The position numbers and the translations under genes are program-made. A DNA stretch of 16,167 bases from Prolixibacteraceae bacterium (GTDB lineage: Bacteria > Bacteroidota > Bacteroidia > Bacteroidales > Prolixibacteraceae): positions 1 to 16,167 of the forward strand of contig JAQIBQ010000200.1 of assembly GCA_027859005.1 (NCBI GenBank), read 5' to 3'. Position 1 is the first letter of the stretch; each line of letters opens with the position of its first letter. Of this stretch, positions 3,352 to 15,986 are shown in pieces. Under the pieces are notes generated by a model. It saw only the letters and a program-made list of their open reading frames with translations, did not search any database and was not told the DNA's origin.

Positions 3352-3389
3352 AAAATATCGTTTCTTAGTTTACAACTTGAAATTGGTGT

Positions 3390-4157
3390 ATGCATAGAAA
3401 ATTGATAATTATTATTTTCTTTTTATTTCCAACAGTAATATTTGCTCAGTCGGCCAAAGAGCTAAATCAAAATTTCACTAAATTCTTACTGGAAGGAAAC
3501 GAAAAAGCCTGGGAGAAACAGGTATATAAATTACAGAGCAAGCAATTATCACAAAAAGAATCGGAGATTTTATTATCGGCTGAATACGGACTCATTGGCT
3601 TTTATATGGCTAATAATCAACTTAGCGATGCTGAAAAAATGATTGGTCATTTTGAAAATCATCTATCTTCTATAAGCAAAACAAACATTATAGATGCCAC
3701 TAATTTAGCCTATGAGGCTTCAATCGCTGGATTCAAAATAGCAATTTCTCCAGGAAAAGCAATATTTCTGGCAGGTGTTAATAAGCGAAAAATAGAAAAA
3801 GCTTTAAGTATTGATCCCGACAACCCAATTGCTTTATTTGAGCAAGCAAATTCCTTGTTTTTCAGGCCAGAGAATTTTGGTGGAAATCAGAAAAATGCGC
3901 TTACAATTTATGAAAAGGCATTTTCAATTATGGAAAAAGAAATTCCATCTCATTGGATCTATTACAATACTGGTGTTTGGCTCGGGCAAGTATATACTCA
4001 TTTCAATCAACTAAAAAAAGCAAGACACATTTACGAACAACTTTTAGACAAAGCACCCAATTATAAAATTGTTGCTGAAGTACTATATCCCAATATTAAA
4101 CTTAGTGAATTTGATGAAAAATGGGATGCCTTCCTCGAAGATACAGATGAAGATTAA
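3390..4157 (+). CDS. Secreted hypothetical protein, helical/TPR-like
   Basis: 255 aa. N-terminal signal peptide MHRKLIIIIFFLFPTVIFAQ. Helical repeat-like C-terminus (ALTIYEKAF..., GQVYTHFNQLKKARHIYEQLLDKAPNY). It starts 38 nt after the receptor stop on the same strand, so it is probably co-transcribed. Confidence 0.6.
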   Translation: MHRKLIIIIFFLFPTVIFAQSAKELNQNFTKFLLEGNEKAWEKQVYKLQSKQLSQKESEILLSAEYGLIGFYMANNQLSDAEKMIGHFENHLSSISKTNIIDATNLAYEASIAGFKIAISPGKAIFLAGVNKRKIEKALSIDPDNPIALFEQANSLFFRPENFGGNQKNALTIYEKAFSIMEKEIPSHWIYYNTGVWLGQVYTHFNQLKKARHIYEQLLDKAPNYKIVAEVLYPNIKLSEFDEKWDAFLEDTDED

Positions 4158-4953: not shown

Positions 4954-5475
4954 ATGGATAGAAAAAAACTATATTTATTTAACAATCTAAATATCGAAGA
5001 ATATTGCAACTTACATTGCTCTGATGTAATTTTTGAACGAGGGTTCGATTATTTAAATAATTATCGAGTTATTTCAGATTGGCAACCACCAACAAAAAAA
5101 AATGACATTATCGTATCGGTTCAAGGAAGTAAAATTTATGATGTTCATGTTAAATATTTTAATTCCTCCGAAATAACAACTCATTGCAACTGCCCCTATA
5201 GCTTTGGTGGTTTGTGCAAACACGAGGTTGCGGCATTAATGCACATTGACATGACGAATACTCCTGCAACAAAAGTGATTGAAATTGAACCCAATCCTGT
5301 CACTGATGAGAACTGCACCATCTGGGAATTAGATAAACTCAATGAAGAATATTTAGACGCTTTTGCAAATAAACTTGATTATCGGTTTAATGAATTTCAT
5401 GATTACCGATTTTCAATTTCAAAATTACTTGCAAAAAAAATCCAGTGTAAGATCATTCCTGGGTATAACAGTTAA
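4954..5475 (+). CDS. SWIM zinc-finger N-terminal module of an SNF2 helicase; ends at an in-frame TAA
   Basis: 173 aa. SWIM CxCx(n)CxH signature HCNCPYSFGGLCKHEVAAL. N-terminal ..FERGFDYLNNYRV.. is typical of SWIM-SNF2 N-termini. It is in the same reading frame as the downstream helicase ORF. Confidence 0.75.
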   Translation: MDRKKLYLFNNLNIEEYCNLHCSDVIFERGFDYLNNYRVISDWQPPTKKNDIIVSVQGSKIYDVHVKYFNSSEITTHCNCPYSFGGLCKHEVAALMHIDMTNTPATKVIEIEPNPVTDENCTIWELDKLNEEYLDAFANKLDYRFNEFHDYRFSISKLLAKKIQCKIIPGYNS

Positions 5476-5574: not shown

Positions 5575-8500
5575 TTGGTTACGCTAGAGAACTTAGCCGA
5601 AGAGCGTTTTTTTCCTGACGTAATTTACCCTGAAAATAAAAAGAAAATTACCGACAGCATAATGGCATCATTTGGACTAACTGGTAAAGTGCCGGAGAAA
5701 GATTTTATCAACTTCTTTATTACTCAAGATGGTCATATCAGTTTAAGTGTTGCTCCAAAATACGATGGAATTCAGCCTGTCGACCTTGATGAAAGAATGG
5801 CTTATCGTGAGGTTTTTCTATCAAATACACTAGCTGCGGGAGAAGTAAAAATCGATTTACCTGAGTTTCCAACAGAAGAAGAGTCAACCGCAAAATTTGC
5901 TCTTGGTTTTCAACTTGTTTACATTCCGTTTAATGAACGGATTCAAATTATACCCATTGCAGGAAAGCTAAATAAACGAGGTACTGCCATGATTTCAAAT
6001 TTTGAATACTACGATGAAACCTCCATTCTACCTATTACCGAAAATATCGAAGATGAAAAGCTGATCAGACTTTGCCATAAAATAGCTCCTGAAAAGCTGG
6101 ATAATTACCTAAGGCGCAAAGAGATAAACCCAAGACAAGATATCGAAAATTATGCATCAACAGAACTGATTCAGTACTTGATGCAATATCTTCCTGAACT
6201 GTTTCAACGACTAAGTAAGCAAGCTTTTGTTTTTATCAAAAATGAAAAAAACCACGGATATTATGACGCAGTACCGAAAAAGAAAAATCTCAGTAGAATT
6301 GAAGTATCGATGATACCAGCTAATTTAATTTATAGGTTAACTGAAGACGAAATTTTTGTTGACTTGTTACCGGTTATCGAAATTGAGGGTGAAGAATATT
6401 TGTTTGACGATGAACAGATTGAAATACTGAACCCTGTATTGGTAAAAATTGGAAGCACAATCCACCTAATAAACGGCTTACAACATGCGCTAGGGGTTAA
6501 AAACACTTATGAATCGAGCAGCATAAAAATGGTGAATGATCACTTGTCAGTTTTTTTAGATGAATATGTTATTCCACTCTCCCAATCATTCGATATTAAA
6601 TTTGATCAACTTTCAAACTACGACATGGAAGAATTAAAAGTAAAACCTGTTAAAAAGAAGTTATACATCAGCGGAATGGGGAATTTTGTACTTTTTAAAC
6701 CGGTTGTTGAATACGAAAAAAACATTGATATTGAGTTGCTGAAAAAGGGAACTCCTGTTACGATTAATGGTCATATCATTCATAAAACCATACGTGATGA
6801 AAAGTACGAGGATGAATTTGATAGTTTTTTCAGAGCCTTACATCCTTCGTTCGGGAAACAATATCCACACGAATTTTACAACCTGAAGGTAGATCAGATG
6901 ATCGAAAAGTTCTGGTTTTTCGATGCTTTTGAGAAACTTAAAGCTTTCGATGTTGAAGTGTATGGCCTCAACGATTTGAAAAATTTTAAGTACAGCCCCT
7001 TTAAAGGAACTGTAAATACAAACTTGAAATCGGGGAAAGATTGGTTTGAAGTTAAAGTGCAAATAGCATTTGGCGATAACAAAGTATCACTTAACGAAGT
7101 TCGGAAAGCACTGTTAAAAAACGAACGCTATATAAAACTTTCAGACAATTCGATTGGAATTTTACCCGAAGAGTGGCTTGAAAAATTCAATCGTTACTTA
7201 CGTGTGGGAGAAATAAAAGACGATAAATTACTCATTTCGAAAAAGAAATTCCCGATTGTAGAAGAGCTGTTTGAGGATATTGACGATGCCGAAATACTAA
7301 AAGAACTTGCCGAAAAAAGAAGGTTCCTTAAAGAATTTGAAGAGATTAAACAGGTAAAACTTCCAGCTGGCATTAAAGCCAATTTGCGCGATTATCAAAA
7401 ATCGGGTTTTAACTGGATGTGTTTTTTACACAGTTTTAAATGGGGCGGCATTTTAGCCGACGATATGGGCCTTGGAAAAACCCTTCAAGCCATTACTTTT
7501 CTGAAAAAAATTGCAAAAGAAGATAAAAGACCATCGCTGATTGTTGTGCCAACAACGCTGATTTTTAACTGGGAAAACGAGCTTAAAAAGTTTTGCCCAT
7601 CGCTAAAAGCACATTACTACTACGGGAGCAACAGAGAGAAAAACGAAGACGTTTTCAATAAAAGCAATCTGGTAATTACCACCTACGGACTGGTTGTAAA
7701 CGACATTGAATTTTTGAAATCAATTGAGTTCAATTACATTATCCTCGATGAGTCGCAAGCCATAAAAAACCCAAGCTCGAAGCGGTTTAAAGCGGTGAAC
7801 TTACTTACTGCGAGCAACCGGATTGCCATGACCGGCACTCCAATAGAAAACAACACTTTCGATTTGTTTGCCCAAATGAGCTTTGTTAACCCCGGATTTC
7901 TTGGTAGTGCCAACCATTTTCGCGATCAGTTCTCAACCCCTATCGACCGCGATGGTGATAAACAAAGAGCAGCCGAATTGCAACAAATGATTGCGCCATT
8001 CGTGATTAGACGGACCAAAGAACAAGTGGCTACCGAACTACCTCCAAAAACCGAAGATGTAATTTATTGCACCATGGATAAGGAACAACGTGGTGTTTAC
8101 GATGCCTACCGTAACAAAATCAGAGAACAACTGATGGAGAAAATTGAAACTGAAGGTTTTGGCAAATCGAAAATTCATGTGTTGGAAGGATTGTTGAAAC
8201 TGAGACAAATTTGTGATTCTCCTGCACTTTTGTCGGATGACGAAAATTATGGCGACGACTCAGTAAAAATTAAAGAGCTGATGAGACACATTACCCGCAA
8301 AACATCGAACCATAAAATTGTCATCTTCTCGCAGTTTGTAAAAATGCTTGCCCTGCTTAAAGACGAGGTTGAGAATATGAATATCAATTATGAATACCTC
8401 GACGGACAATGCAATCAAAAGCAACGGAAAGCCAGTGTTGCCCGATTTCAGGAAGATGACAACTGCCGTTTATTCCTGATTAGCCTAAAGGCCGGAGGCA

Positions 8501-8769
8501 CGGGTATAAACCTCACGGCTGCCGATTATGTTTATATTGTTGATCCGTGGTGGAACCCGGCTGTTGAAAACCAAGCCATCGACCGCTGTTATCGGATTGG
8601 TCAAGATAAAAAAGTCTTTGCTTACCGTATGATCTGTAAAGACACCATCGAAGAAAAAATTATTCAGTACCAACAAGACAAACGAGACGTTGCTGAAGGC
8701 ATCATCCAAACCGATGAAAACTTTATGAAAAAACTCACCCAAGATGACGTTAAAGCTATTTTTGGTTGA
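5575..8769 (+). CDS. SNF2-family DEAD/DEAH-box helicase; the frame is open from 5476 and the true start is unresolved
   Basis: Motif I ILADDMGLGKT (GLGKT at 7468-7482). Motif II ILDESQAIKN (DESQ from 7747). MTGTPIENN. Helicase_C segment FLISLKAGGTGINLTAADYVYIVDPWWNPAVENQAIDRCYRIGQ. The ORF-track start at 5575 is TTG. The first in-frame ATG is 5662. A second SWIM motif (TCSCSSWNKGVCKH, 5530-5571) lies upstream of both candidate starts. Confidence 0.9.
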   Translation: MVTLENLAEERFFPDVIYPENKKKITDSIMASFGLTGKVPEKDFINFFITQDGHISLSVAPKYDGIQPVDLDERMAYREVFLSNTLAAGEVKIDLPEFPTEEESTAKFALGFQLVYIPFNERIQIIPIAGKLNKRGTAMISNFEYYDETSILPITENIEDEKLIRLCHKIAPEKLDNYLRRKEINPRQDIENYASTELIQYLMQYLPELFQRLSKQAFVFIKNEKNHGYYDAVPKKKNLSRIEVSMIPANLIYRLTEDEIFVDLLPVIEIEGEEYLFDDEQIEILNPVLVKIGSTIHLINGLQHALGVKNTYESSSIKMVNDHLSVFLDEYVIPLSQSFDIKFDQLSNYDMEELKVKPVKKKLYISGMGNFVLFKPVVEYEKNIDIELLKKGTPVTINGHIIHKTIRDEKYEDEFDSFFRALHPSFGKQYPHEFYNLKVDQMIEKFWFFDAFEKLKAFDVEVYGLNDLKNFKYSPFKGTVNTNLKSGKDWFEVKVQIAFGDNKVSLNEVRKALLKNERYIKLSDNSIGILPEEWLEKFNRYLRVGEIKDDKLLISKKKFPIVEELFEDIDDAEILKELAEKRRFLKEFEEIKQVKLPAGIKANLRDYQKSGFNWMCFLHSFKWGGILADDMGLGKTLQAITFLKKIAKEDKRPSLIVVPTTLIFNWENELKKFCPSLKAHYYYGSNREKNEDVFNKSNLVITTYGLVVNDIEFLKSIEFNYIILDESQAIKNPSSKRFKAVNLLTASNRIAMTGTPIENNTFDLFAQMSFVNPGFLGSANHFRDQFSTPIDRDGDKQRAAELQQMIAPFVIRRTKEQVATELPPKTEDVIYCTMDKEQRGVYDAYRNKIREQLMEKIETEGFGKSKIHVLEGLLKLRQICDSPALLSDDENYGDDSVKIKELMRHITRKTSNHKIVIFSQFVKMLALLKDEVENMNINYEYLDGQCNQKQRKASVARFQEDDNCRLFLISLKAGGTGINLTAADYVYIVDPWWNPAVENQAIDRCYRIGQDKKVFAYRMICKDTIEEKIIQYQQDKRDVAEGIIQTDENFMKKLTQDDVKAIFG

Positions 8770-9304: not shown

Positions 9305-9337
9305 GCTGAATTCAAAAGGGGCTTGATCAGCTTTTTT
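9305..9337 (+). terminator. Candidate intrinsic terminator after the ATPase relic
   Basis: GCTGA(at)TCAA at 9305-9315 pairs with TTGATCAGC at 9323-9331: 9 bp, a 2-nt bulge and a 7-nt loop. T6 follows at 9332-9337. Confidence 0.4.
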
Positions 9338-9357
9338 CCTTTAAGGAACAAAAAAAA

Positions 9358-9420
9358 AGCTGAATTTCGGTCGTGTTCACGAAACTCAACCTGAGTAATT
9401 CTAACGCGTCCTTAGGTTTC
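9358..9420 (-). pseudogene. Duplicated 3'-end fragment of the QueD/PTPS-family gene
   Basis: The minus-strand translation ET*GRVRITQVEFREHDRNSA matches the C-terminus ETNNRVRITQVEFREHERNSA of the intact gene at 10139-10606. 62 bp (9359-9420) align with 10158-10219 with about 8 mismatches, including a 32-bp identical core. Confidence 0.75.
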
Positions 9421-9534
9421 GGCCAAGCAAGATGATAATTTAATCTATATTCATTCGTATAAATGCCTATCTTGTCGTTTATCAATAATGTGAATTTAAA
9501 AGACTCCAAAAAAGTGTAACCTTAACCTAGTTAA

Positions 9535-10138: not shown

Positions 10139-10606
10139 CTATTCAGGAATAAAAATGGCTGAATTACGTTCGTGTTCACGAAACTCAACCTGAGTAATTC
10201 TCACGCGGTTGTTGGTTTCTTTTAAAATGAAGGGATTCATTTTTTGATAAATGTATTCGGCATAACGCTCGGCGCCAACATGTGGCATTATTCGCAATTG
10301 AATTAAGCCTTGTTTATCTAATTGTTTGAATAACTCTAAATCGGGATCGTCTTCCGACACGATGGTGGTATGGTCGAACATATAGGCCATCCAGTCTTTG
10401 GGACTCATGCCGTCGATGGTAGACTTTGCCCGTTTCATGCCTCCAAAATCCCACACCCAGTTACGATGATCTAAATCGCCCTCGAACCATAGTTTAAACG
10501 AAACTCCGTAACCGTGAAGGTATTTACAATGCGAATCGGTAGCCCGCCACTGACGGAACACAGTACTGAAACCGTCGAATACTTTGGTAGATTGAAATTT
10601 TGCCAT
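10139..10606 (-). CDS. 6-carboxytetrahydropterin / 6-pyruvoyl-tetrahydropterin synthase (QueD/PTPS) family protein
   Basis: FSTVFRQWRATDSHCKYLHGYGVSFKLWFEGDLDHRNWVWDFGGMK resembles the PTPS/QueD fold signature (His-containing LHGH/Y block, then a DFG block). The ORF-track start at 10615 is TTG and lies inside a tandem repeat. The first ATG (MAKFQSTKV) is at 10606 and sits 26 nt downstream of a TAAATTTG -7 box. Confidence 0.7.
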   Translation of the reverse strand: MAKFQSTKVFDGFSTVFRQWRATDSHCKYLHGYGVSFKLWFEGDLDHRNWVWDFGGMKRAKSTIDGMSPKDWMAYMFDHTTIVSEDDPDLELFKQLDKQGLIQLRIMPHVGAERYAEYIYQKMNPFILKETNNRVRITQVEFREHERNSAIFIPE

Positions 10607-10642
10607 AAAAATCAAATTTAACCTCTAAAAATCAAATTTAAC
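10607..10642 (-). promoter_or_regulatory. Tandem duplication of a 16-bp element, each copy carrying a TAAATTTG -7 box, upstream of the QueD-family gene
   Basis: AAAAATCAAATTTAAC occurs at 10607-10622 and 10627-10642, a 20-bp period. The reverse complement of each copy contains TAAATTTG, which matches TAnnTTTG. Confidence 0.4.
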
Positions 10643-10698: not shown

Positions 10699-10706
10699 TA
10701 TTTTTG
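10699..10706 (+). promoter_or_regulatory. Candidate -7 box (TATTTTTG) for sbcD
   Basis: Matches TAnnTTTG and lies 25 nt upstream of the ATG at 10732. No clear -33 element. Confidence 0.35.
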
Positions 10707-10731: not shown

Positions 10732-11946
10732 ATGAAAATTCTCCATACTTCAGATTGGCATTTAGGTAAACGGCTCGATGATTTTTCACGCCTTGAAGAA
10801 CAGAAAGCCATCATGCAAGAAATAGGTACAATTGCAGATACAGAAAAAGTTGATGCTATTTTAATTGCAGGCGATCTATTCGACACCTTCAACCCGCCAA
10901 CCGAGGCCATCGACCTCTTTTATAGAACCTTAAAACAGTTAACCAATAATGGTCAACGCCCAGTGATAGCGATTGCTGGGAATCACGATTCGCCCGATCG
11001 GATTGAGGCACCTGATCCGCTGGCACGCGAATGTGGGATTATATTTGCCGGTTATCCAAACTCGAAAGTTGAGCCCTTTGAATTGGAATCGGGAGTTAAA
11101 GTACTGCATAGCGAAGAAGGATTTCTGGAACTTCAATTACCTAATACCAAAATTCCTTTACGCATTTTACTTACTCCTTATGCCAATGAGTTTCGTTTAA
11201 AAACAAGTTTAGGCCTAGAAAATAGCGAAGAAGAATTGCGCGAAGTATTACAAAGCAGTTGGAATAATTTGGCTGATAAATATTGTGATTCGAAGGGAGT
11301 AAACATCCTCTTGTCTCATCTTTTTGTTGTACGTAAAGGTGACAAAATGCCCGTAGAACCCGATGATGAAAAACCGATACTTCATGTAGGTGGCGCTCAA
11401 GCTGTTCACACCGAAAATATCCCAAAACAAATTCAATATACAGCTTTGGGACACCTGCACCGTATGCATTGTGTAGACAATCAATTTGGATTGGTTTACT
11501 ATTCAGGAAGTCCGTTATCATACAGTTTTGCAGAAGCCAATCAACGGAAATATGCTTTGATAGTTGACATTGAACCAGGACACTTTACCAGTGTTCAAGA
11601 AATTGAACTTACCAAAGGCAAACGCTTATTACGTAAACGTACTGAAGGAATAGAGGAAGCCATTCAGTGGTTAAGCGAAAACCAGGATGCACTTGTTGAA
11701 CTTACACTAGTAACCGAAACATTCCTTACAGCTAAAGAGAGAAGAGAACTTACCGCGGTGCATCAAGGCATTGTATCGGTTATACCTGAAGTGACAAACA
11801 AACAAGAACTTTCAGGAGAAGCTAAAAAGCAAATTGACTTGAGCAAAAGCATGGAAGAACTTTTTATCGACTATTTCAAACACGAAAAAGGCCAAGAACC
11901 CAATGAAGAATTGATGAAGATGTTTAATGAAATGATGGCCGAGTAA
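10732..11946 (+). CDS. sbcD: Exonuclease SbcD (Mre11-like calcineurin-fold phosphoesterase)
   Basis: MKILHTSDWHLGK, ILIAGDLFD and IAIAGNHDS (GNHD at 10978-10989) are the phosphoesterase motifs. Later GHLH. 404 aa. sbcC lies downstream. Confidence 0.9.
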   Translation: MKILHTSDWHLGKRLDDFSRLEEQKAIMQEIGTIADTEKVDAILIAGDLFDTFNPPTEAIDLFYRTLKQLTNNGQRPVIAIAGNHDSPDRIEAPDPLARECGIIFAGYPNSKVEPFELESGVKVLHSEEGFLELQLPNTKIPLRILLTPYANEFRLKTSLGLENSEEELREVLQSSWNNLADKYCDSKGVNILLSHLFVVRKGDKMPVEPDDEKPILHVGGAQAVHTENIPKQIQYTALGHLHRMHCVDNQFGLVYYSGSPLSYSFAEANQRKYALIVDIEPGHFTSVQEIELTKGKRLLRKRTEGIEEAIQWLSENQDALVELTLVTETFLTAKERRELTAVHQGIVSVIPEVTNKQELSGEAKKQIDLSKSMEELFIDYFKHEKGQEPNEELMKMFNEMMAE

Positions 11947-11952
11947 CAAATT

Positions 11953-12180
11953 CACCACAGATTACACAAATGAACACAGATAGAAAAAAAAACATAGAAT
12001 ACAAACAAAATGAAATTTATCCAACTATTGATCTGCGATAATCCGTGATATCTGTGGTGAAAAAAAGGTGCACCACGGATTACACAGAGGCACACCGATT
12101 ATAAAAAATAAAATAATGAAAATTCAGAATAGAAATATTTATACAGCAATTAATCTGCGATAATCCGTGTAATCCGTGGT
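11953..12180. repeat. Two complete imperfect-hairpin repeat modules (A arm, AT-rich loop, B arm) upstream of the GxxExxY gene
   Basis: Module 1 is 11953-12059: CACCACAGAT at 11953-11962 pairs with ATCTGTGGTG at 12050-12059. Module 2 is 12071-12180: ACCACGGATTACAC at 12072-12085 pairs perfectly with GTGTAATCCGTGGT at 12167-12180, plus inner GATTA/TAATC pairing. Confidence 0.8.
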
Positions 12181-12197
12181 AAAAAAATACAATACTC

Positions 12198-12587
12198 ATG
12201 AAAACAACTGATCTTCAAAAACTAAATGAAATATCCTATAAAATAATAGGAGCAGCATATAAAGTACATTCAGAACTTGGTCCAGGATTGCTGGAATCAA
12301 CCTATGAAGTTTGCCTGGAATACGAATTATTGAACTTAGGATTTAAGGTTGAACGTCAGAAAGCATTACCATTGGTCTACGATAAAATAAAACTAGATGC
12401 TGGTTATCGTATTGATCTGCTTGTGGAGGACAACATTATACTGGAATTAAAATCGGTTGAAGAAATTGCCCCCATTCACAAAGCACAAATTATGACCTAT
12501 TTAAAACTTTCAGGACTAAAGCTTGGACTTTTAATGAATTTCAATGTGTTGGATATGAAGAAAGGAATAAAAAGAATAATAATGTAA
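12198..12587 (+). CDS. GxxExxY protein (PD-(D/E)XK nuclease-like small protein family)
   Basis: 129 aa. ISYKIIGAAYKVHSELGPGLLESTYEVCLEYEL carries the eponymous G-LL-E-ST-Y motif. RIDLLVEDNIILELK is a D..(D/E)xK-like block. Ends ..GLLMNFN.. as is typical of the family. Confidence 0.85.
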   Translation: MKTTDLQKLNEISYKIIGAAYKVHSELGPGLLESTYEVCLEYELLNLGFKVERQKALPLVYDKIKLDAGYRIDLLVEDNIILELKSVEEIAPIHKAQIMTYLKLSGLKLGLLMNFNVLDMKKGIKRIIM

Positions 12588-12604
12588 AGTGTCGTTTAGA
12601 TAGA

Positions 12605-12894
12605 TTAATCTGTGGTAAAAATAATTCACCACCGATTACACAGAGGTACACAGATTGAAAAAATGAAAAAACAAAATAGATGTTTTTATCAGTAATTAAT
12701 CTTTGACAATCCGTGATATCTGTGGTAAAAAAAAAATTGCACCACCGATTACACAGAGGTACACAGATTAAAAAAAAAGAAAATTCAGAATAGAAATATT
12801 TATTCAGCTATTAATCTGTGGTTAAAAGAAAAAAGACAATATAAAATACATACGAAGTGAATTTATTCAACTATTAATCCGTATAATCTGTAGT
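12605..12894. repeat. Further copies and partial copies of the same hairpin repeat family, downstream of the GxxExxY gene
   Basis: Orphan B arm at 12605-12616. Module A 12627-12656 / B 12696-12726. Module A 12740-12769 / short B 12811-12822. Orphan loop plus B at 12856-12894. The A arms at 12627 and 12740 are identical over 30 nt. The 40 nt at 12779-12818 match 12118-12157 at 38 of 40 positions. Confidence 0.8.
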
Positions 12895-12905
12895 AAATAC
12901 AAGTT

Positions 12906-15900
12906 ATGATACCAATACAACTCACCATACAAGGTTTATACTCTTATCAGGAGAAACAAACCATTGATTTTACTCAATTAACAGCTGCCAATTTGTTTGG
13001 TATTTTTGGATCTGTTGGATGCGGAAAATCGTCTATTTTAGAAGCCATTACTTTTGCATTGTACGGCAAAACCGATCGTTTAAACCTATCGGGCGACAAC
13101 CGCAATTACAACATGATGAATTTGAAATCGGATGAACTACTTATCGAATTCATTTTTGAAACGGGGAAGGCTCAGACCGCTTATCGGGCAACAGTAGCAG
13201 GTAAAAGAAACAGCAAAAATTTTGAGGATGTAAAAAAACTAGATCGGAAAGCATACAAGAAAATAGATAATCAATGGAGCCCCATCGACACTGACGCTCT
13301 AGAACAAGCTATTGGCTTAAGCTACGAAAACTTCAAACGAACCATTATTATTCCTCAAGGACAATTCCAAGAATTTCTTCAGTTGGGAAATAAGGATCGT
13401 ACCCAAATGATGAAAGAATTATTCAACCTTGCCAAATACGAGTTTTTCTATAAGGTCACTGCTCTAGAGTCGAAAAATAACGCTGCAAAACAAAACATTG
13501 AAGGACAATTACAACAATTAGGTGCAATTGATTTAGAGCAAGTTGGATTGTATAAAACACAGCTCGCCGAACTTGAAAAAGAACTTGTATCTTTTAACCA
13601 AGCTCTTGCAAAACAGCAACAATTCGAGAAGGAATTACAAAACATTCAACAACTTACGCTTAAGAAAACACAAATTGAAAAGGAGTACAATCTTCTTTTG
13701 AACCAACAAGAAAAGCACAAGAAACTGGAAAACAAAATTGCCCGATACGAAGAAGCTCAAATCAAATTCAAACACCAGCTCGATTCATTGCACACAACCA
13801 ATGAGAAACACGAATCGCGTGGGAAACAGATAAAATTTGACACCACCAAACTAAAGGAAGAACAAGCGAACATTGAAAAGCTCACCAAGCTTTTGGACAA
13901 GATAAAACCCGCCTACGAAAACCGCGAAGACTTAAAAAAACGAGCCAACGAACTTACCCTCCTTTTGCAAATGAAAGCATTGAGCAAAACAATTTTAGAG
14001 GAAGAAGATCGCTTAACAAAAGGCGCTCAGGTTTGTAATGAAACCATTAAGCAGTTTGACAAATCGAAAATCGAAAAACAAGAATTAGAAGAGAAAATAA
14101 AAAAGACAAAGAAACTACTACCCGACATCTCGCTGCTTTCCAAAATTAAAACCTGGTTTGTTGAGAAAAACAACTTAGACAAACAGTTGAATGAAACGGA
14201 CAAAGAACTTGTGAATTATGAGGCTGACATTAAGAAATTGAAAGGTGATTTATTTAAAATTCAGCTTCATTCTATTTTTAAAGACCTCCCTAAAGCTGCT
14301 GATTTCGCGGATACGATGCAATACCTTAATAATTATTCGATGCAAATTAAGGTACAACAAAACAAGCTGATCAAGGAAGAAAATCACATCCCGGTAAAGG
14401 CACAAGTAAAAGAATATTCAAAAAACTTGGAAGATGGAAAAGCCTGTCCCCTATGTGGATCACTTGATCATCCTGAAATGTATAAAGCCGATGAAATAAA
14501 TGAAGTTCTCTCCAGATTAGAAAAAAATAAACAGCATTTAGATAAAGAGTTGGAGCAATTATCAACCCTGGTAAATCAAATCAATCAGATTGAAAACCAG
14601 AGCCAACTTATAATTAAGCAAAAACAGTTAGTCGCTGAAAAGAAGAAAGCTAAACAAAAGCAAAATGAGGAACACAACAAACTATTTGTTTGGGATAAAT
14701 ACAAGGAAGAAAAAAAACTAAACAGTGCTTTTCGAGATGCTGATGAAGTACAGAAAGAGCTGAAAGTGCTAGAAAAACATCAAGAAGAAATTGCGAAACG
14801 ATTAGATCTGGAAGAAAAAAACAAAGAGCGGTTTCAAACTGCCGTTGACAAAATTAAAACGTCTCTTACGGTGCACAATACGGAACTAAAAACAATAAGC
14901 AAGCAACTCAAGTCTATTGATACCGAATCGTACAACGAAACTTCTGCTTCTAAAATAGAAGAAGAGAAAGTAGGATTATTGAATGAGTTCGCTCGTCTTG
15001 AAAAAGAGTTCAATGAAAAAAACACGCAATTAACAGAACAAACCAAAGCACACAACACTTTATCTGGGAGTTTACTTGCAAACCAAAATGAGTGGGAGCA
15101 AGAGAAGTTAACTATAGCCGAACTGAACAAACAAGTTCAAGAACAGCTTCAGGCCTCAAGCTTCGACACACTCAATGAAATTAAACAATTGCTTGCAGAA
15201 CCATTCGACTCCAAACGAGAGAAGCAAAAAATTACACAATACAATGAATCACTTGTGAGACATAAATCTCAACTGGATGAAATACAGAAAGAGATTGGAA
15301 ACCAAGTTTATGACAGTGAAGTTCACCAGAAATTACAAGCACAATTGCTTGAGTTGAAACAGTTGATTGACCAAAAAAATCAAGAACAAGGGAAGGTTTC
15401 AGAACTATTGAAGAAGCTAGAGAAAGACATAGAGAACCAATCAAAATTATTAAAGGAAAAAGAGCAGTTAGATTTGAGGGCTGAAAACATTAAAACCATG
15501 AAAGGCCTCTTTAAAGCAAGTGGTTTTGTGAACTACATTTCGTCGGTTTATTTGCAGAACCTTTGTAATGCTGCAAACGACCGTTTTTTCCAACTCACCA
15601 AACAGAAGCTAAGTTTAGAAATCACTGAAGACAATAATTTCCTGGTGCGTGACTTTATGAATGGCGGAAAAACCCGAAATGTTAAAACTCTTTCGGGCGG
15701 ACAAACTTTCCAAGCAGCTTTGTCGCTGGCTCTGGCCTTAGCCGATAACATTCAAAAAATTACAGAATCGAATCAGAATTTCTTCTTCCTTGACGAAGGA
15801 TTTGGCTCCTTAGATAAAGAATCGTTGTCCATTGTTTTTGACACCTTGAAATCCTTACGGAAAGAGAAACGAATTGTTGGAGTAATATCGCATGTAGAAG

Positions 15901-15986
15901 AGATGCAGCAAGAAATTGAAGTTCACCTACGCATTAAAAACGACCAAGAAAAAGGAAGTAGAATAAGTACAAGTTGGGAAAGTTAG
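12906..15986 (+). CDS. sbcC: Exonuclease SbcC (Rad50-like SMC ATPase)
   Basis: 1026 aa. Walker A GSVGCGKSS at 13008-13034. Very long coiled coil rich in K, E and Q. Zinc-hook CPLCG at 14445-14459. ABC signature LSGGQTF. Walker B FFFLDEGFGSLD. D-loop/H-loop ..GVISHV. Confidence 0.92.
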   Translation: MIPIQLTIQGLYSYQEKQTIDFTQLTAANLFGIFGSVGCGKSSILEAITFALYGKTDRLNLSGDNRNYNMMNLKSDELLIEFIFETGKAQTAYRATVAGKRNSKNFEDVKKLDRKAYKKIDNQWSPIDTDALEQAIGLSYENFKRTIIIPQGQFQEFLQLGNKDRTQMMKELFNLAKYEFFYKVTALESKNNAAKQNIEGQLQQLGAIDLEQVGLYKTQLAELEKELVSFNQALAKQQQFEKELQNIQQLTLKKTQIEKEYNLLLNQQEKHKKLENKIARYEEAQIKFKHQLDSLHTTNEKHESRGKQIKFDTTKLKEEQANIEKLTKLLDKIKPAYENREDLKKRANELTLLLQMKALSKTILEEEDRLTKGAQVCNETIKQFDKSKIEKQELEEKIKKTKKLLPDISLLSKIKTWFVEKNNLDKQLNETDKELVNYEADIKKLKGDLFKIQLHSIFKDLPKAADFADTMQYLNNYSMQIKVQQNKLIKEENHIPVKAQVKEYSKNLEDGKACPLCGSLDHPEMYKADEINEVLSRLEKNKQHLDKELEQLSTLVNQINQIENQSQLIIKQKQLVAEKKKAKQKQNEEHNKLFVWDKYKEEKKLNSAFRDADEVQKELKVLEKHQEEIAKRLDLEEKNKERFQTAVDKIKTSLTVHNTELKTISKQLKSIDTESYNETSASKIEEEKVGLLNEFARLEKEFNEKNTQLTEQTKAHNTLSGSLLANQNEWEQEKLTIAELNKQVQEQLQASSFDTLNEIKQLLAEPFDSKREKQKITQYNESLVRHKSQLDEIQKEIGNQVYDSEVHQKLQAQLLELKQLIDQKNQEQGKVSELLKKLEKDIENQSKLLKEKEQLDLRAENIKTMKGLFKASGFVNYISSVYLQNLCNAANDRFFQLTKQKLSLEITEDNNFLVRDFMNGGKTRNVKTLSGGQTFQAALSLALALADNIQKITESNQNFFFLDEGFGSLDKESLSIVFDTLKSLRKEKRIVGVISHVEEMQQEIEVHLRIKNDQEKGSRISTSWES

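Follow-up and report, generated by a model that had tools for sequence, protein, structure and literature searches.

The stretch of DNA analysed here (the window) comprises 16,167 nucleotides (nt) of contig JAQIBQ010000200.1 from a Prolixibacteraceae bacterium, and it carries an sbcD-sbcC gene pair that is split by a gap of 959 nt (positions 11947-12905). The gap contains one intact open reading frame (ORF) of 129 amino acids that belongs to the GxxExxY family, together with six repeat modules, three of which are complete. A complete module consists of an A arm, a loop and a B arm that is an inverted copy of the A arm, and each arm is made of two or three CAC(A/G)GAT(T/A)A cores at a spacing of 9 or 10 nt. 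We lean toward the interpretation that the gap is a GxxExxY cassette in a system built on a PD-(D/E)XK nuclease, one that resembles either miniature inverted-repeat transposable elements (MITEs) or the partnership between REPINs (hairpin-forming doublets of repetitive extragenic palindromes, REPs) and RAYTs (REP-associated tyrosine transposases). A preliminary description of this stretch had proposed a mobile or selfish MITE- or REP-like repeat family that travels with a small PD-(D/E)XK protein, and this proposal is supported by relatives with empty sites and by arms that occur elsewhere beside GxxExxY genes.

The gap contents are an insertion, and its position coincides exactly with the ATGA in which the sbcD stop and the sbcC start overlap. 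This overlap is intact in Sunxiuqinia elliptica (locus L028), Draconibacterium orientale (L030) and a Mangrovibacterium metagenome-assembled genome (L044), as would be expected if the two genes are normally adjacent or overlapping. The comparison with relatives that had been suggested for finding an empty site thus yields one in three related genera, and the idea that repeats and gene together landed inside the sbcDC operon is borne out by the same sites. Phased cores are absent from the S. elliptica and D. orientale loci, and a looser scan recovers none from S. elliptica or Mangrovibacterium and one match at chance level from D. orientale. No arm-like target is evident in the empty sbcD|sbcC sites, and the spacer holds no copy of either flank (3′ end of sbcD, 5′ end of sbcC) that scores above shuffled sequences. 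The 5′ end of sbcC in the window (ATGATACCAATACAACTCACCATACAAGG) aligns with the sbcC starts of all three empty-site loci. A second assembly of the window locus (L001) ends inside a repeat, directly 3′ of the GxxExxY gene.

The same junction is filled by a GxxExxY gene and modules in two other Prolixibacteraceae lineages, represented by L029 and by L039-L043. Locus L029 has a single module ahead of the gene; a lone B arm follows the gene, and four 82-nt modules in tandem then lead up to sbcC. In L039, a module and a collapsed B arm precede the gene, and two modules follow it. The SbcD proteins of L029 and L039 share 80-84% identity with those of the empty-site genera versus 75% with that of the window. 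Either the junction has been hit twice or an old insertion has been precisely lost in several lineages, and gain and loss at this junction follow because both scenarios imply them. When the outer junctions were compared for target-site duplications, the 8-mer AAGAATGA was found at both ends in L029, whereas the junctions of the window and of L039 are ambiguous and the other loci offer no empty site for comparison. The pair in L029 would be expected if a target duplication had preserved the stop codon of sbcD as well as the start codon of sbcC.

All modules in the gap are described here on the + strand. Module 1 (11951-12061) carries the A arm TTCACCACAGATTACACAAATGAACACAGAT, an AT-rich loop of 49 nt and the B arm ATCTGCGATAATCCGTGATATCTGTGGTGAA, followed by a run of A nucleotides. 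It forms an inverted repeat (11951-11981 with 12031-12061) whose 31-nt arms are 77% complementary and 49 nt apart, and it is predicted to fold as DNA with a free energy of -13.6 kcal/mol (z-score -4.3; -5.1 as RNA). Module 2 (12071-12180) is composed of the A arm CACCACGGATTACACAGAGGCACACCGATTA, a 49-nt loop and the B arm TAATCTGCGATAATCCGTGTAATCCGTGGT. Its inverted repeat pairs 12072-12101 with 12151-12180 across 49 nt, with z-scores of -3.9 for DNA and -4.4 for RNA, and its outer 14 base pairs are perfect (12072-12085 with 12167-12180), which is the stem that had been noticed at the outset. Downstream of the gene, module 3 (12627-12726; A arm CACCACCGATTACACAGAGGTACACAGATTG, B arm TTAATCTTTGACAATCCGTGATATCTGTGGT) yields z-scores of -2.2 for DNA and -4.1 for RNA. 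Module 4 (12740-12822) has a full A arm and a loop, and its B arm has collapsed to TTAATCTGTGGT, which leaves a weak fold (z-scores -1.6 for DNA and -3.0 for RNA). A decayed remnant (12842-12897), made of a loop like that of module 1 and the degenerate B arm TTAATCCGTATAATCTGTAGT, has no significant fold (DNA z-score +0.6) and is followed by AAATACAAGTT and the sbcC start.

Inverted A- and B-arm families on both sides of the gene were recovered independently by a search for repeat families, which places A-arm starts at 11943, 12061, 12617 and 12730 and B-arm starts at 12015, 12137 and 12683. The phased-core pattern occurs five times in the window, every time inside the gap, where 0.08 occurrences are expected from shuffled sequences, and therefore the arm pattern in the gap is more than chance. 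The preliminary description had counted four complete and about three partial modules. The repeat family stands, and the count of complete copies is revised to three, accompanied by one module with a collapsed B arm, one lone collapsed B arm and one decayed remnant. When folded as DNA and as RNA, as it had suggested, the complete copies fold far better than shuffled sequences. The reported match between loop segments 12118-12157 and 12779-12818 holds and extends to 12110-12157 (module 2) and 12771-12818 (module 4), which are 92% identical, and the reported likeness of 12010-12035 to 12856-12880 reflects the module-1-like loop of the remnant. Some modules in the gap therefore arose by local duplication, as evident by the loops common to modules 2 and 4 and to module 1 and the last remnant.

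The core unit of the window is an A arm, the ORF and a B arm, because a decayed A-arm sub-repeat (CAACTGATCT, 12207-12216) lies within the 5′ end of the ORF and a collapsed B arm follows its stop codon. This lone arm (TTAATCTGTGGT, 12605-12616) lies 18 nt 3′ of the stop and has the same sequence as the collapsed B arm of module 4. It marks the right-hand edge of the A-ORF-B unit and has lost its internal sub-repeats by deletion between direct ATCTG cores, and L029 carries a lone full B arm in the equivalent position 3′ of the gene. An A-rich leader (AAAAAAATACAATACTC, 12181-12197, + strand) links the B arm of module 2 to the GxxExxY start codon and may serve as a translation-initiation region. 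The tail AAATACAAGTT, which adjoins the sbcC start codon, is similar to this leader.

The gene between the arms (12198-12587, + strand) encodes a predicted minimal PD-(D/E)XK nuclease that matches hidden Markov models (HMMs) of its family above their curated cut-offs. The single 129-amino-acid GxxExxY gene that had been noticed in the gap is indeed a full-length family member, as evident by its matches to PF13366 PDDEXK_3 (3.4e-44, 150.4 bits against a cut-off of 22, model positions 2-117 of 117) and TIGR04256 GxxExxY (2.5e-45, 153.6 bits against a cut-off of 35, model positions 1-116 of 116). The motif residues are G30-L-L-E33-S-T-Y36, D73 and E83-L-K85. Residues G30, E33, Y36, D73 and K85 are invariant in two alignments (A1 and A3, which cover Bacteroidota and sphingomonad clusters), and E83 is invariant in A1 and conserved in at least 90% of A3. 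An AlphaFold2 model computed from alignment A3 (predicted local distance difference test score, pLDDT, of 92.6) adopts the minimal PD-(D/E)XK fold, alpha-alpha-beta-beta-beta-alpha-beta. The ratio of nonsynonymous to synonymous substitution rates (dN/dS) is 0.04-0.07 where dS is measurable; dN is about 0.1 and synonymous sites are saturated. On these comparisons of sequence, the protein is ancient and strongly constrained.

The family comprises 21,261 clusters at 50% identity (E <= 0.001). A survey of PD-(D/E)XK proteins enters it as being of unknown function, and literature searches for GxxExxY, PDDEXK_3, PF13366 and the arm sequences reveal a family that is almost without literature and return no description of an architecture with flanking repeats. 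Neither sequence nor profile searches find a relative in the Protein Data Bank (PDB). Libraries of defence genes return only marginal Cas4 and phrog matches, and no homologue is present among 50,697 phage records or in IMG/VR contigs. The closest solved folds found by Foldseek are Cas4 SSO0001 (TM-score 0.50, probability 0.98), Bax1 and alkaline exonuclease, all of them weak matches with E > 0.04. Some family members of about 275 amino acids (P0241-P0250 and others) contain two tandem GxxExxY domains, and many members have N-terminal extensions that read like translated arms, such as TEGTEDTE, NHEGAKETKGTK and LTQRTQ.

The layout of A arm, ORF and B arm recurs in Bacteroidota, Gemmatimonadota, Alphaproteobacteria and Spirochaetota. 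In every annotated locus the GxxExxY ORF is co-oriented with both of its neighbors, which form many unrelated gene pairs. The nearest homologues (81-83% identical) lie between two hsdM genes in type I restriction-modification operons of several Bacteroidota (L021-L027), and similar arms touch the ORF. Within 10 kb on either side of the closest homologues the phased cores sit beside the GxxExxY gene, with a single exception inside an hsdM gene (L022, position 8547), as anticipated if arms adjoin GxxExxY genes elsewhere. In L023 and L045 the start codon falls within the A arm, and in L021 it adjoins a remnant of that arm; in L021 and L045, additional sub-repeats code for the first residues of the protein.

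Several observations on these restriction-modification loci stand apart from the question of the arms. The order in L021-L027 is hsdM, GxxExxY, hsdM, hsdS ... hsdR, with both hsdM genes of full length and often with AbiEii-like neighbors (e.g. L023, 8499-13034). In L045 the GxxExxY gene follows hsdM, a helix-turn-helix gene and HipA, and the contig ends beyond the gene. This type I placement is conserved across several Bacteroidota orders. In Saccharicrinis carchari (L022, 9780-10560), every hairpin module around the GxxExxY gene follows a decayed copy of the terminal ~40 nt of the hsdM gene upstream, and because of these copies the L022 modules appear to have been duplicated together with host flank, by recombination or co-conversion and not by clean transposition.

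The distant homologues examined reside on large plasmids or chromids and have lineage-specific cores. Arms ACCACAGAGGACGCAGAGGACACGGAGG ... CTCTGTGACCTCTGTGTCCTCTGTGGTG bound the gene between radA and a FAD protein gene in Bacteroides finegoldii, CACAGAGA-type cores occur between ade and manC in Bernardetia, and CGCAGAGGA modules lie on each side of the gene in Gemmatirosa. Between fabD and fabG, Sphingomonas and Sphingobium carry CGCG(A/G)AGG arms whose B arm lies within the 3′ end of the ORF. A 12-base-pair inverted repeat surrounds the gene in Treponema. In Fusobacteria, Prevotella and Persicobacter, by contrast, the gene is flanked on each side by periodic direct repeats. The arm type thus varies with the GxxExxY clade, as GATTA, GAGGA, CGCAGAGG and CGCGAAGG types. 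The fabD|fabG cassette is conserved across Sphingomonas and Sphingobium, and its G/A core differences occur in both arms. In these two genera (L034, 2992-3420; L049, 3001-3432) the B arm within the ORF encodes a conserved C-terminal tail (...ASSRLRVNQ...).

Modules also occur apart from the gene. The exact 21-base A-arm motif CCACNGATTACACAGAGGNACAC is present in 8 genome contigs, from Ignavibacteria, Bacteroides, Acidobacteriota, Deltaproteobacteria and Phycisphaerales, and in 11 metagenome contigs, which together span at least five phyla and guanine-plus-cytosine (GC) fractions of 0.29-0.70; about one match in the genome collection is expected by chance (an estimate from 4^21). In most of the fuller stretches a partner arm follows ~20-110 nt downstream, and no GxxExxY ORF is found in the stretches fetched around these matches, even with the broad family profile. 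Arms therefore occur outside sbcDC at other loci and in other genomes and phyla, as had been anticipated. High-copy intergenic inverted doublets that far outnumber the enzyme gene, the pattern typical of REPs, are found in two cases. In Gemmatirosa the module is present at 39 or more places on each of two ~1 Mb replicons that hold 3 and 0 protein matches, and in B. finegoldii records the window-type module is present at 33 or more places on 14 records versus one gene. The B. finegoldii module examined as an example directly follows a stop codon in the space between two convergent genes. Groundwater contigs (L013, 3040-3185; L011; L015; L018) carry the same 140-nt module at two or more different loci; its loop is itself a phased repeat, GTCCAAA(C/A)..., and it is thus a multi-copy element of a genome with a GC fraction of 0.6-0.65.

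What the arms are recognized as, DNA sites or an RNA stem, bears directly on the mechanism. The module ends read (T/G)CACCAC ... GTGGT(G/A), and among 15 non-redundant modules from eight loci the cores are near-invariant and the linkers and the variable fourth base are mostly non-complementary. Pairing of arm positions amounts to 77.7% within modules versus 76.8 ± 1.0% when arms are swapped between modules, and 114 of 500 shuffles do as well as the real arms. No module-specific covariation of the arms is therefore evident over the 15 modules, which pair no better than shuffled partners do. There is also no bias toward folding of the sense-strand RNA; the window modules fold 3-13 kcal/mol better as antisense, and stand-alone modules occur in both orientations relative to neighboring genes, with about 4 of 11 antisense to both neighbors. 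Because of the missing covariation, the missing sense-strand bias and the two orientations, we read the arms as DNA sites: the constraint seems to act on phased short sequence sites of double-stranded DNA, one helical turn apart and arranged as two opposed arrays, rather than on a stem in the sense transcript. The identity of the 21-mer across GC fractions of 0.29-0.70 likewise argues for recognition of sequence and not of structure.

DnaA boxes were considered as an identity for the arms, as TTATCCACA occurs at some stand-alone arms, and were dropped, as the window arms read TTCACCACA. Phased short repeats with other cores are found beside CACAGAT-type arms, namely CGCAAAG (ACCGCAAAGGCGCAAAGAACGCAAAA), CACAAAG/CACGAAG and GCACAAG (L007, ~3355-3400; L009, ~3690-3745; L020, 4480-4520), and there may be several sister families of phased-core arms.

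A different explanation would place the function in RNA. Within the operon mRNA, pairing of the A arm with the B arm would either sequester the GxxExxY start or create RNase III sites that excise the cassette, in the manner of REP mRNA stabilizers or of the inverted repeats that enclose ORF-bearing intervening sequences of 23S rRNA, such that the gene is a resident with a host role and the modules are hairpins for processing or stability. Such a role fits the constant co-orientation of the cassette with the host operon and its lack of a promoter motif of its own, the start codons that lie inside the A arm in several homologues, the retention of fabD|fabG arms since Sphingomonas and Sphingobium split, with G/A changes in both arms, and the good RNA folds of modules (z-scores of -4 to -13). 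However, all three properties that led us to DNA sites run counter to it, as do the mostly unpaired linkers and variable N of CAC(N)GAT, and so does the identical 21-mer. The Rfam search of the modules that had been recommended returns no family for the gap, where the only match is to snR67 (22.5 bits versus a gathering score of 55, E 0.057), a chance match to a small nucleolar RNA. We consider an RNA-level role unlikely.

It is about equally doubtful that the modules are an independent REP or MITE family moved by some other enzyme, such as an IS200-like RAYT or a DDE transposase, with the GxxExxY gene as a passenger that recombines into the modules or gathers beside them, for instance as a homing-type nuclease that uses modules as landing pads. 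Another enzyme could move the modules because they occur in stretches without the gene, and because the abundant module type of B. finegoldii differs from the arms of the only gene detected there. Modules outnumber genes at least 25-fold and are also present with no gene nearby, and the L022 hairpins, duplicated with decayed hsdM 3′ ends, look like products of recombination or co-conversion. On the other hand, no transposase gene is present in the window or beside any cassette examined, except for unrelated insertion sequences (IS) in L021 and L029. Arm types follow the GxxExxY clades, the arm incorporates the start codon, and neither the GTAG nor the CGTC tag of the REP classes (PMC3733652) is present in the arms.

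That the spacer is a local accident, grown by tandem duplication and joined by the gene through unrelated recombination with no repeat family or system behind it, would accord with the loops shared within the gap (2 with 4; 1 with the last remnant), yet it is refuted by the same arms in other loci, genomes and phyla, is at odds with relatives that have no spacer and with a spacer that holds no duplicated sbcD or sbcC sequence, and is extremely improbable.

Under the interpretation that we favor, a cassette maintained by its own nuclease, the GxxExxY protein would recognize the phased cores as DNA, probably through several copies that bind next to one another. Its cuts in or close to the arms would then promote copying, gene conversion or transposition of the units that the arms enclose. 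The autonomous form would be the A-ORF-B unit, and the gene-less hairpin modules would be non-autonomous MITE- or REPIN-like passengers derived from it. Tandem arrays and collapsed arms could arise by slippage or unequal recombination between direct sub-repeats. The partnership may be old and mostly kept by vertical descent, as for REPINs and RAYTs, and a long-term resident of this type is suggested over a fast-moving parasite because the protein is ancient and strongly constrained.

Several points weigh against this interpretation. We know of no strand-transfer activity for a 125-amino-acid PD-(D/E)XK domain, and binding, cleavage and transposition by the GxxExxY protein at the arms are activities that we infer from sequence. 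Target-site duplications are ambiguous except in L029. Modules are present in stretches, and perhaps in genomes, that have no GxxExxY gene nearby, and the sole gene detected in B. finegoldii has GAGGA-type arms where the abundant modules are of the GATTA type. Finally, the fabD|fabG cassette with its co-changing arms fits a function in place, possibly at the RNA level or regulatory, as well as it fits mobility.

A more general proposal can be put forward only tentatively. GxxExxY proteins might be dedicated nucleases of palindromic repeats with phased CRCRGA cores that span phyla, and thus represent a second REPIN-RAYT lifestyle that does not depend on an HUH enzyme, wherein a minimal enzyme binds arrays of 7-base-pair cores and maintains or mobilizes arm-bounded units, among them its own gene, which travels within host operons.

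The upstream host gene, sbcD (10732-11946, + strand, 404 amino acids), ends with a TAA codon at 11944-11946, and the first arm starts 4 nt downstream. Its product matches TIGR00619 (sbcd; 185 bits, cut-off 77.65) and, in Pfam, Metallophos, and it is 75-81% identical to the annotated SbcD proteins of Sunxiuqinia, Draconibacterium and Maribellus. The downstream gene, sbcC (12906-15986, + strand, 1026 amino acids), starts 959 nt from sbcD where relatives have a 4-nt overlap. SbcC matches Pfam SbcC_Walker_B (32.6 bits, cut-off 27), and its top NCBIfam matches are SbcC models, yet these fall below the curated cut-offs (266 versus 478.5). A gene for an Mre11-like phosphoesterase is thus followed on one strand by a gene for a Rad50-like ATPase, which is the arrangement of an SbcCD operon, and the same pair is present in L028, L030 and L044. 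The ORF map, with all three genes on the + strand, confirms the spacing originally given between the sbcD stop at 11946 and the sbcC start at 12906.

Transcription of the nuclease gene and of sbcC presumably proceeds by read-through from the sbcD promoter, because the cassette is oriented along the operon and contains no promoter motif. The preliminary description had seen no TAnnTTTG (the Bacteroidetes -7 motif) immediately upstream of sbcC, and there is none anywhere in 11947-12905; the nearest + strand copy lies just upstream of sbcD (10699-10706). Sigma-70 promoter predictions in the gap do not exceed those in shuffled sequences. Intrinsic terminators, with a short GC-rich stem, a loop of 3-8 nt and a T-run directly behind it, were not found on either strand of 11947-12905, where the loops are ~49 nt. 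The further claim that no hairpin is followed by a run of T nucleotides in either orientation fails on the - strand, where T8 and T10 follow modules 2 and 4 after a 3-4-nt spacer behind imperfect stems, and it holds in so far as these do not fit an intrinsic terminator. The insertion has cost sbcC its translational coupling to sbcD, and sbcC would now depend on fresh initiation at the A-rich tail after the last arm.

It had also been suggested that the placement, if not a coincidence, could be a tolerated niche or could modulate the sbcC:sbcD expression ratio. We found no evidence that ties the cassette functionally to SbcCD, be it through this ratio or through evasion of hairpin cleavage, and cassettes lie between many unrelated gene pairs. 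Arms of ~30 base pairs that pair imperfectly around 49-nt loops are poor substrates for SbcCD. The filling of the sbcD|sbcC junction in a second lineage, by shared ancestry or a second hit, keeps the idea of a link alive and proves nothing, and the same can be said of a published observation that, where REPs occur within genes, these are often genes of replication and repair (PMC3733652).

Other features of the window lie upstream of sbcD. A 69-nt direct repeat (9352-9420 and 10151-10219, 86% identical) has its second copy within a PTPS/QueD-like gene (10139-10615, - strand) and its first within a small ORF (9327-9509, - strand), which looks like a fragmentary duplicate of the 3′ part of the PTPS/QueD-like gene. 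A SWIM-like ORF (4954-5475) is followed by a gene for a 1064-amino-acid SNF2 helicase (5575-8769), a defence- or repair-like pair upstream of sbcDC. The helicase resembles DpdE/ZorD-type defence helicases (PADLOC, 1e-151) and a pilus-regulating Snf2 family, with matches that are strong yet fall short of the thresholds.

If the link between the nuclease and the arms holds, a family of ~21,000 clusters at 50% identity would gain a function, and the very common intergenic hairpins of Bacteroidota, Gemmatimonadota, Acidobacteriota, Planctomycetota and other phyla would find an explanation, as would hairpins that break assemblies in many phyla. REP-like repeat populations would then not be tied to HUH transposases. 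PF13366/TIGR04256 gains a testable role, because a nuclease and its candidate DNA sites (the arms and the gene-less hairpins) are brought together. The insertion also put ~950 nt of hairpins into the sbcDC operon, and filled and empty relatives constitute a natural experiment on SbcCD expression.

Among known systems, free-standing homing endonuclease genes, including the PD-(D/E)XK enzyme I-Ssp6803I, resemble the cassette in that a small nuclease gene lies precisely between conserved genes and is present or absent among relatives, and a gene amid a palindromic site (A|B) would split its own target. Unlike the GxxExxY family, which is ancient and strongly constrained, homing endonuclease genes usually decay quickly; moreover, the GxxExxY family has no homologue in the 50,697 phage records, and the empty sbcD|sbcC sites hold no arm-like target. 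The Cas4/RecB-type PD-(D/E)XK core is the nearest in fold, through Cas4 SSO0001, Bax1 and alkaline exonuclease and through weak Cas4 HMM matches, but the GxxExxY protein has no Fe-S cluster module, the Foldseek matches all have E > 0.04 and no PDB entry is related in sequence. The ORF-bearing intervening sequences of 23S rRNA genes (the Leptospira-type S23p, or four-helix-bundle, ORF) have inverted repeats that are cut by RNase III and a multi-copy ORF family. They are alike in carrying a small ORF of a multi-copy family of unknown function within inverted repeats inside a transcribed unit; in contrast, the GxxExxY cassette lies between protein-coding genes and its arms are conserved in sequence, not in structure. 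Integron attC sites are a poor match, in that the arms lack the GTTRRRY core and no integrase was found among the 10 window ORFs scanned.

The MITEs (Correia/NEMIS elements of Neisseria, RUP and BOX) are closer. Like them, the modules are short (57-110 nt) and non-coding, have terminal inverted repeats (arms of ~30 nt), occupy intergenic or intra-operon sites where they are presumably co-transcribed with host genes, occur as tandem and decayed copies, and have a longer gene-bearing relative with the same ends, the A-ORF-B unit. They differ in that the presumed autonomous partner carries no DDE transposase, the ends are internally repetitive and, beyond the 8-base-pair AAGAATGA repeat in L029, target-site duplications are not clear. 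With the REPIN-RAYT (REPtron) systems, in which REP doublets flank a usually single-copy gene for an IS200-like tyrosine (HUH) transposase, the likeness extends to hairpin-forming inverted doublets dispersed intergenically at tens of copies, to a conserved enzyme gene that is itself flanked by repeats, low in copy number, under purifying selection and largely vertical in descent, and to a repeat type that changes with the enzyme clade. Here, by contrast, the enzyme is a PD-(D/E)XK nuclease of 125 amino acids and not an HUH/Y1 transposase, the arms are CAC(N)GAT arrays phased at 9-10 nt where REPs have a single stem tagged with GTAG or CGTC, and the gene lies between co-directional host genes without a promoter of its own and is present in several copies in some genomes. 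In the REP classes of PMC3733652, one palindrome end carries a conserved tetranucleotide, GTAG or CGTC, and neither is present at the module ends. Pfam and NCBIfam searches find no HUH/Y1 (IS200-like) transposase among the 10 ORFs of the window, and the gene that is flanked by repeats is PDDEXK_3. Lacking both an HUH enzyme and the GTAG or CGTC tag, the system is not REP/RAYT by membership, nor is it a classical DDE MITE, but it works most like those systems.

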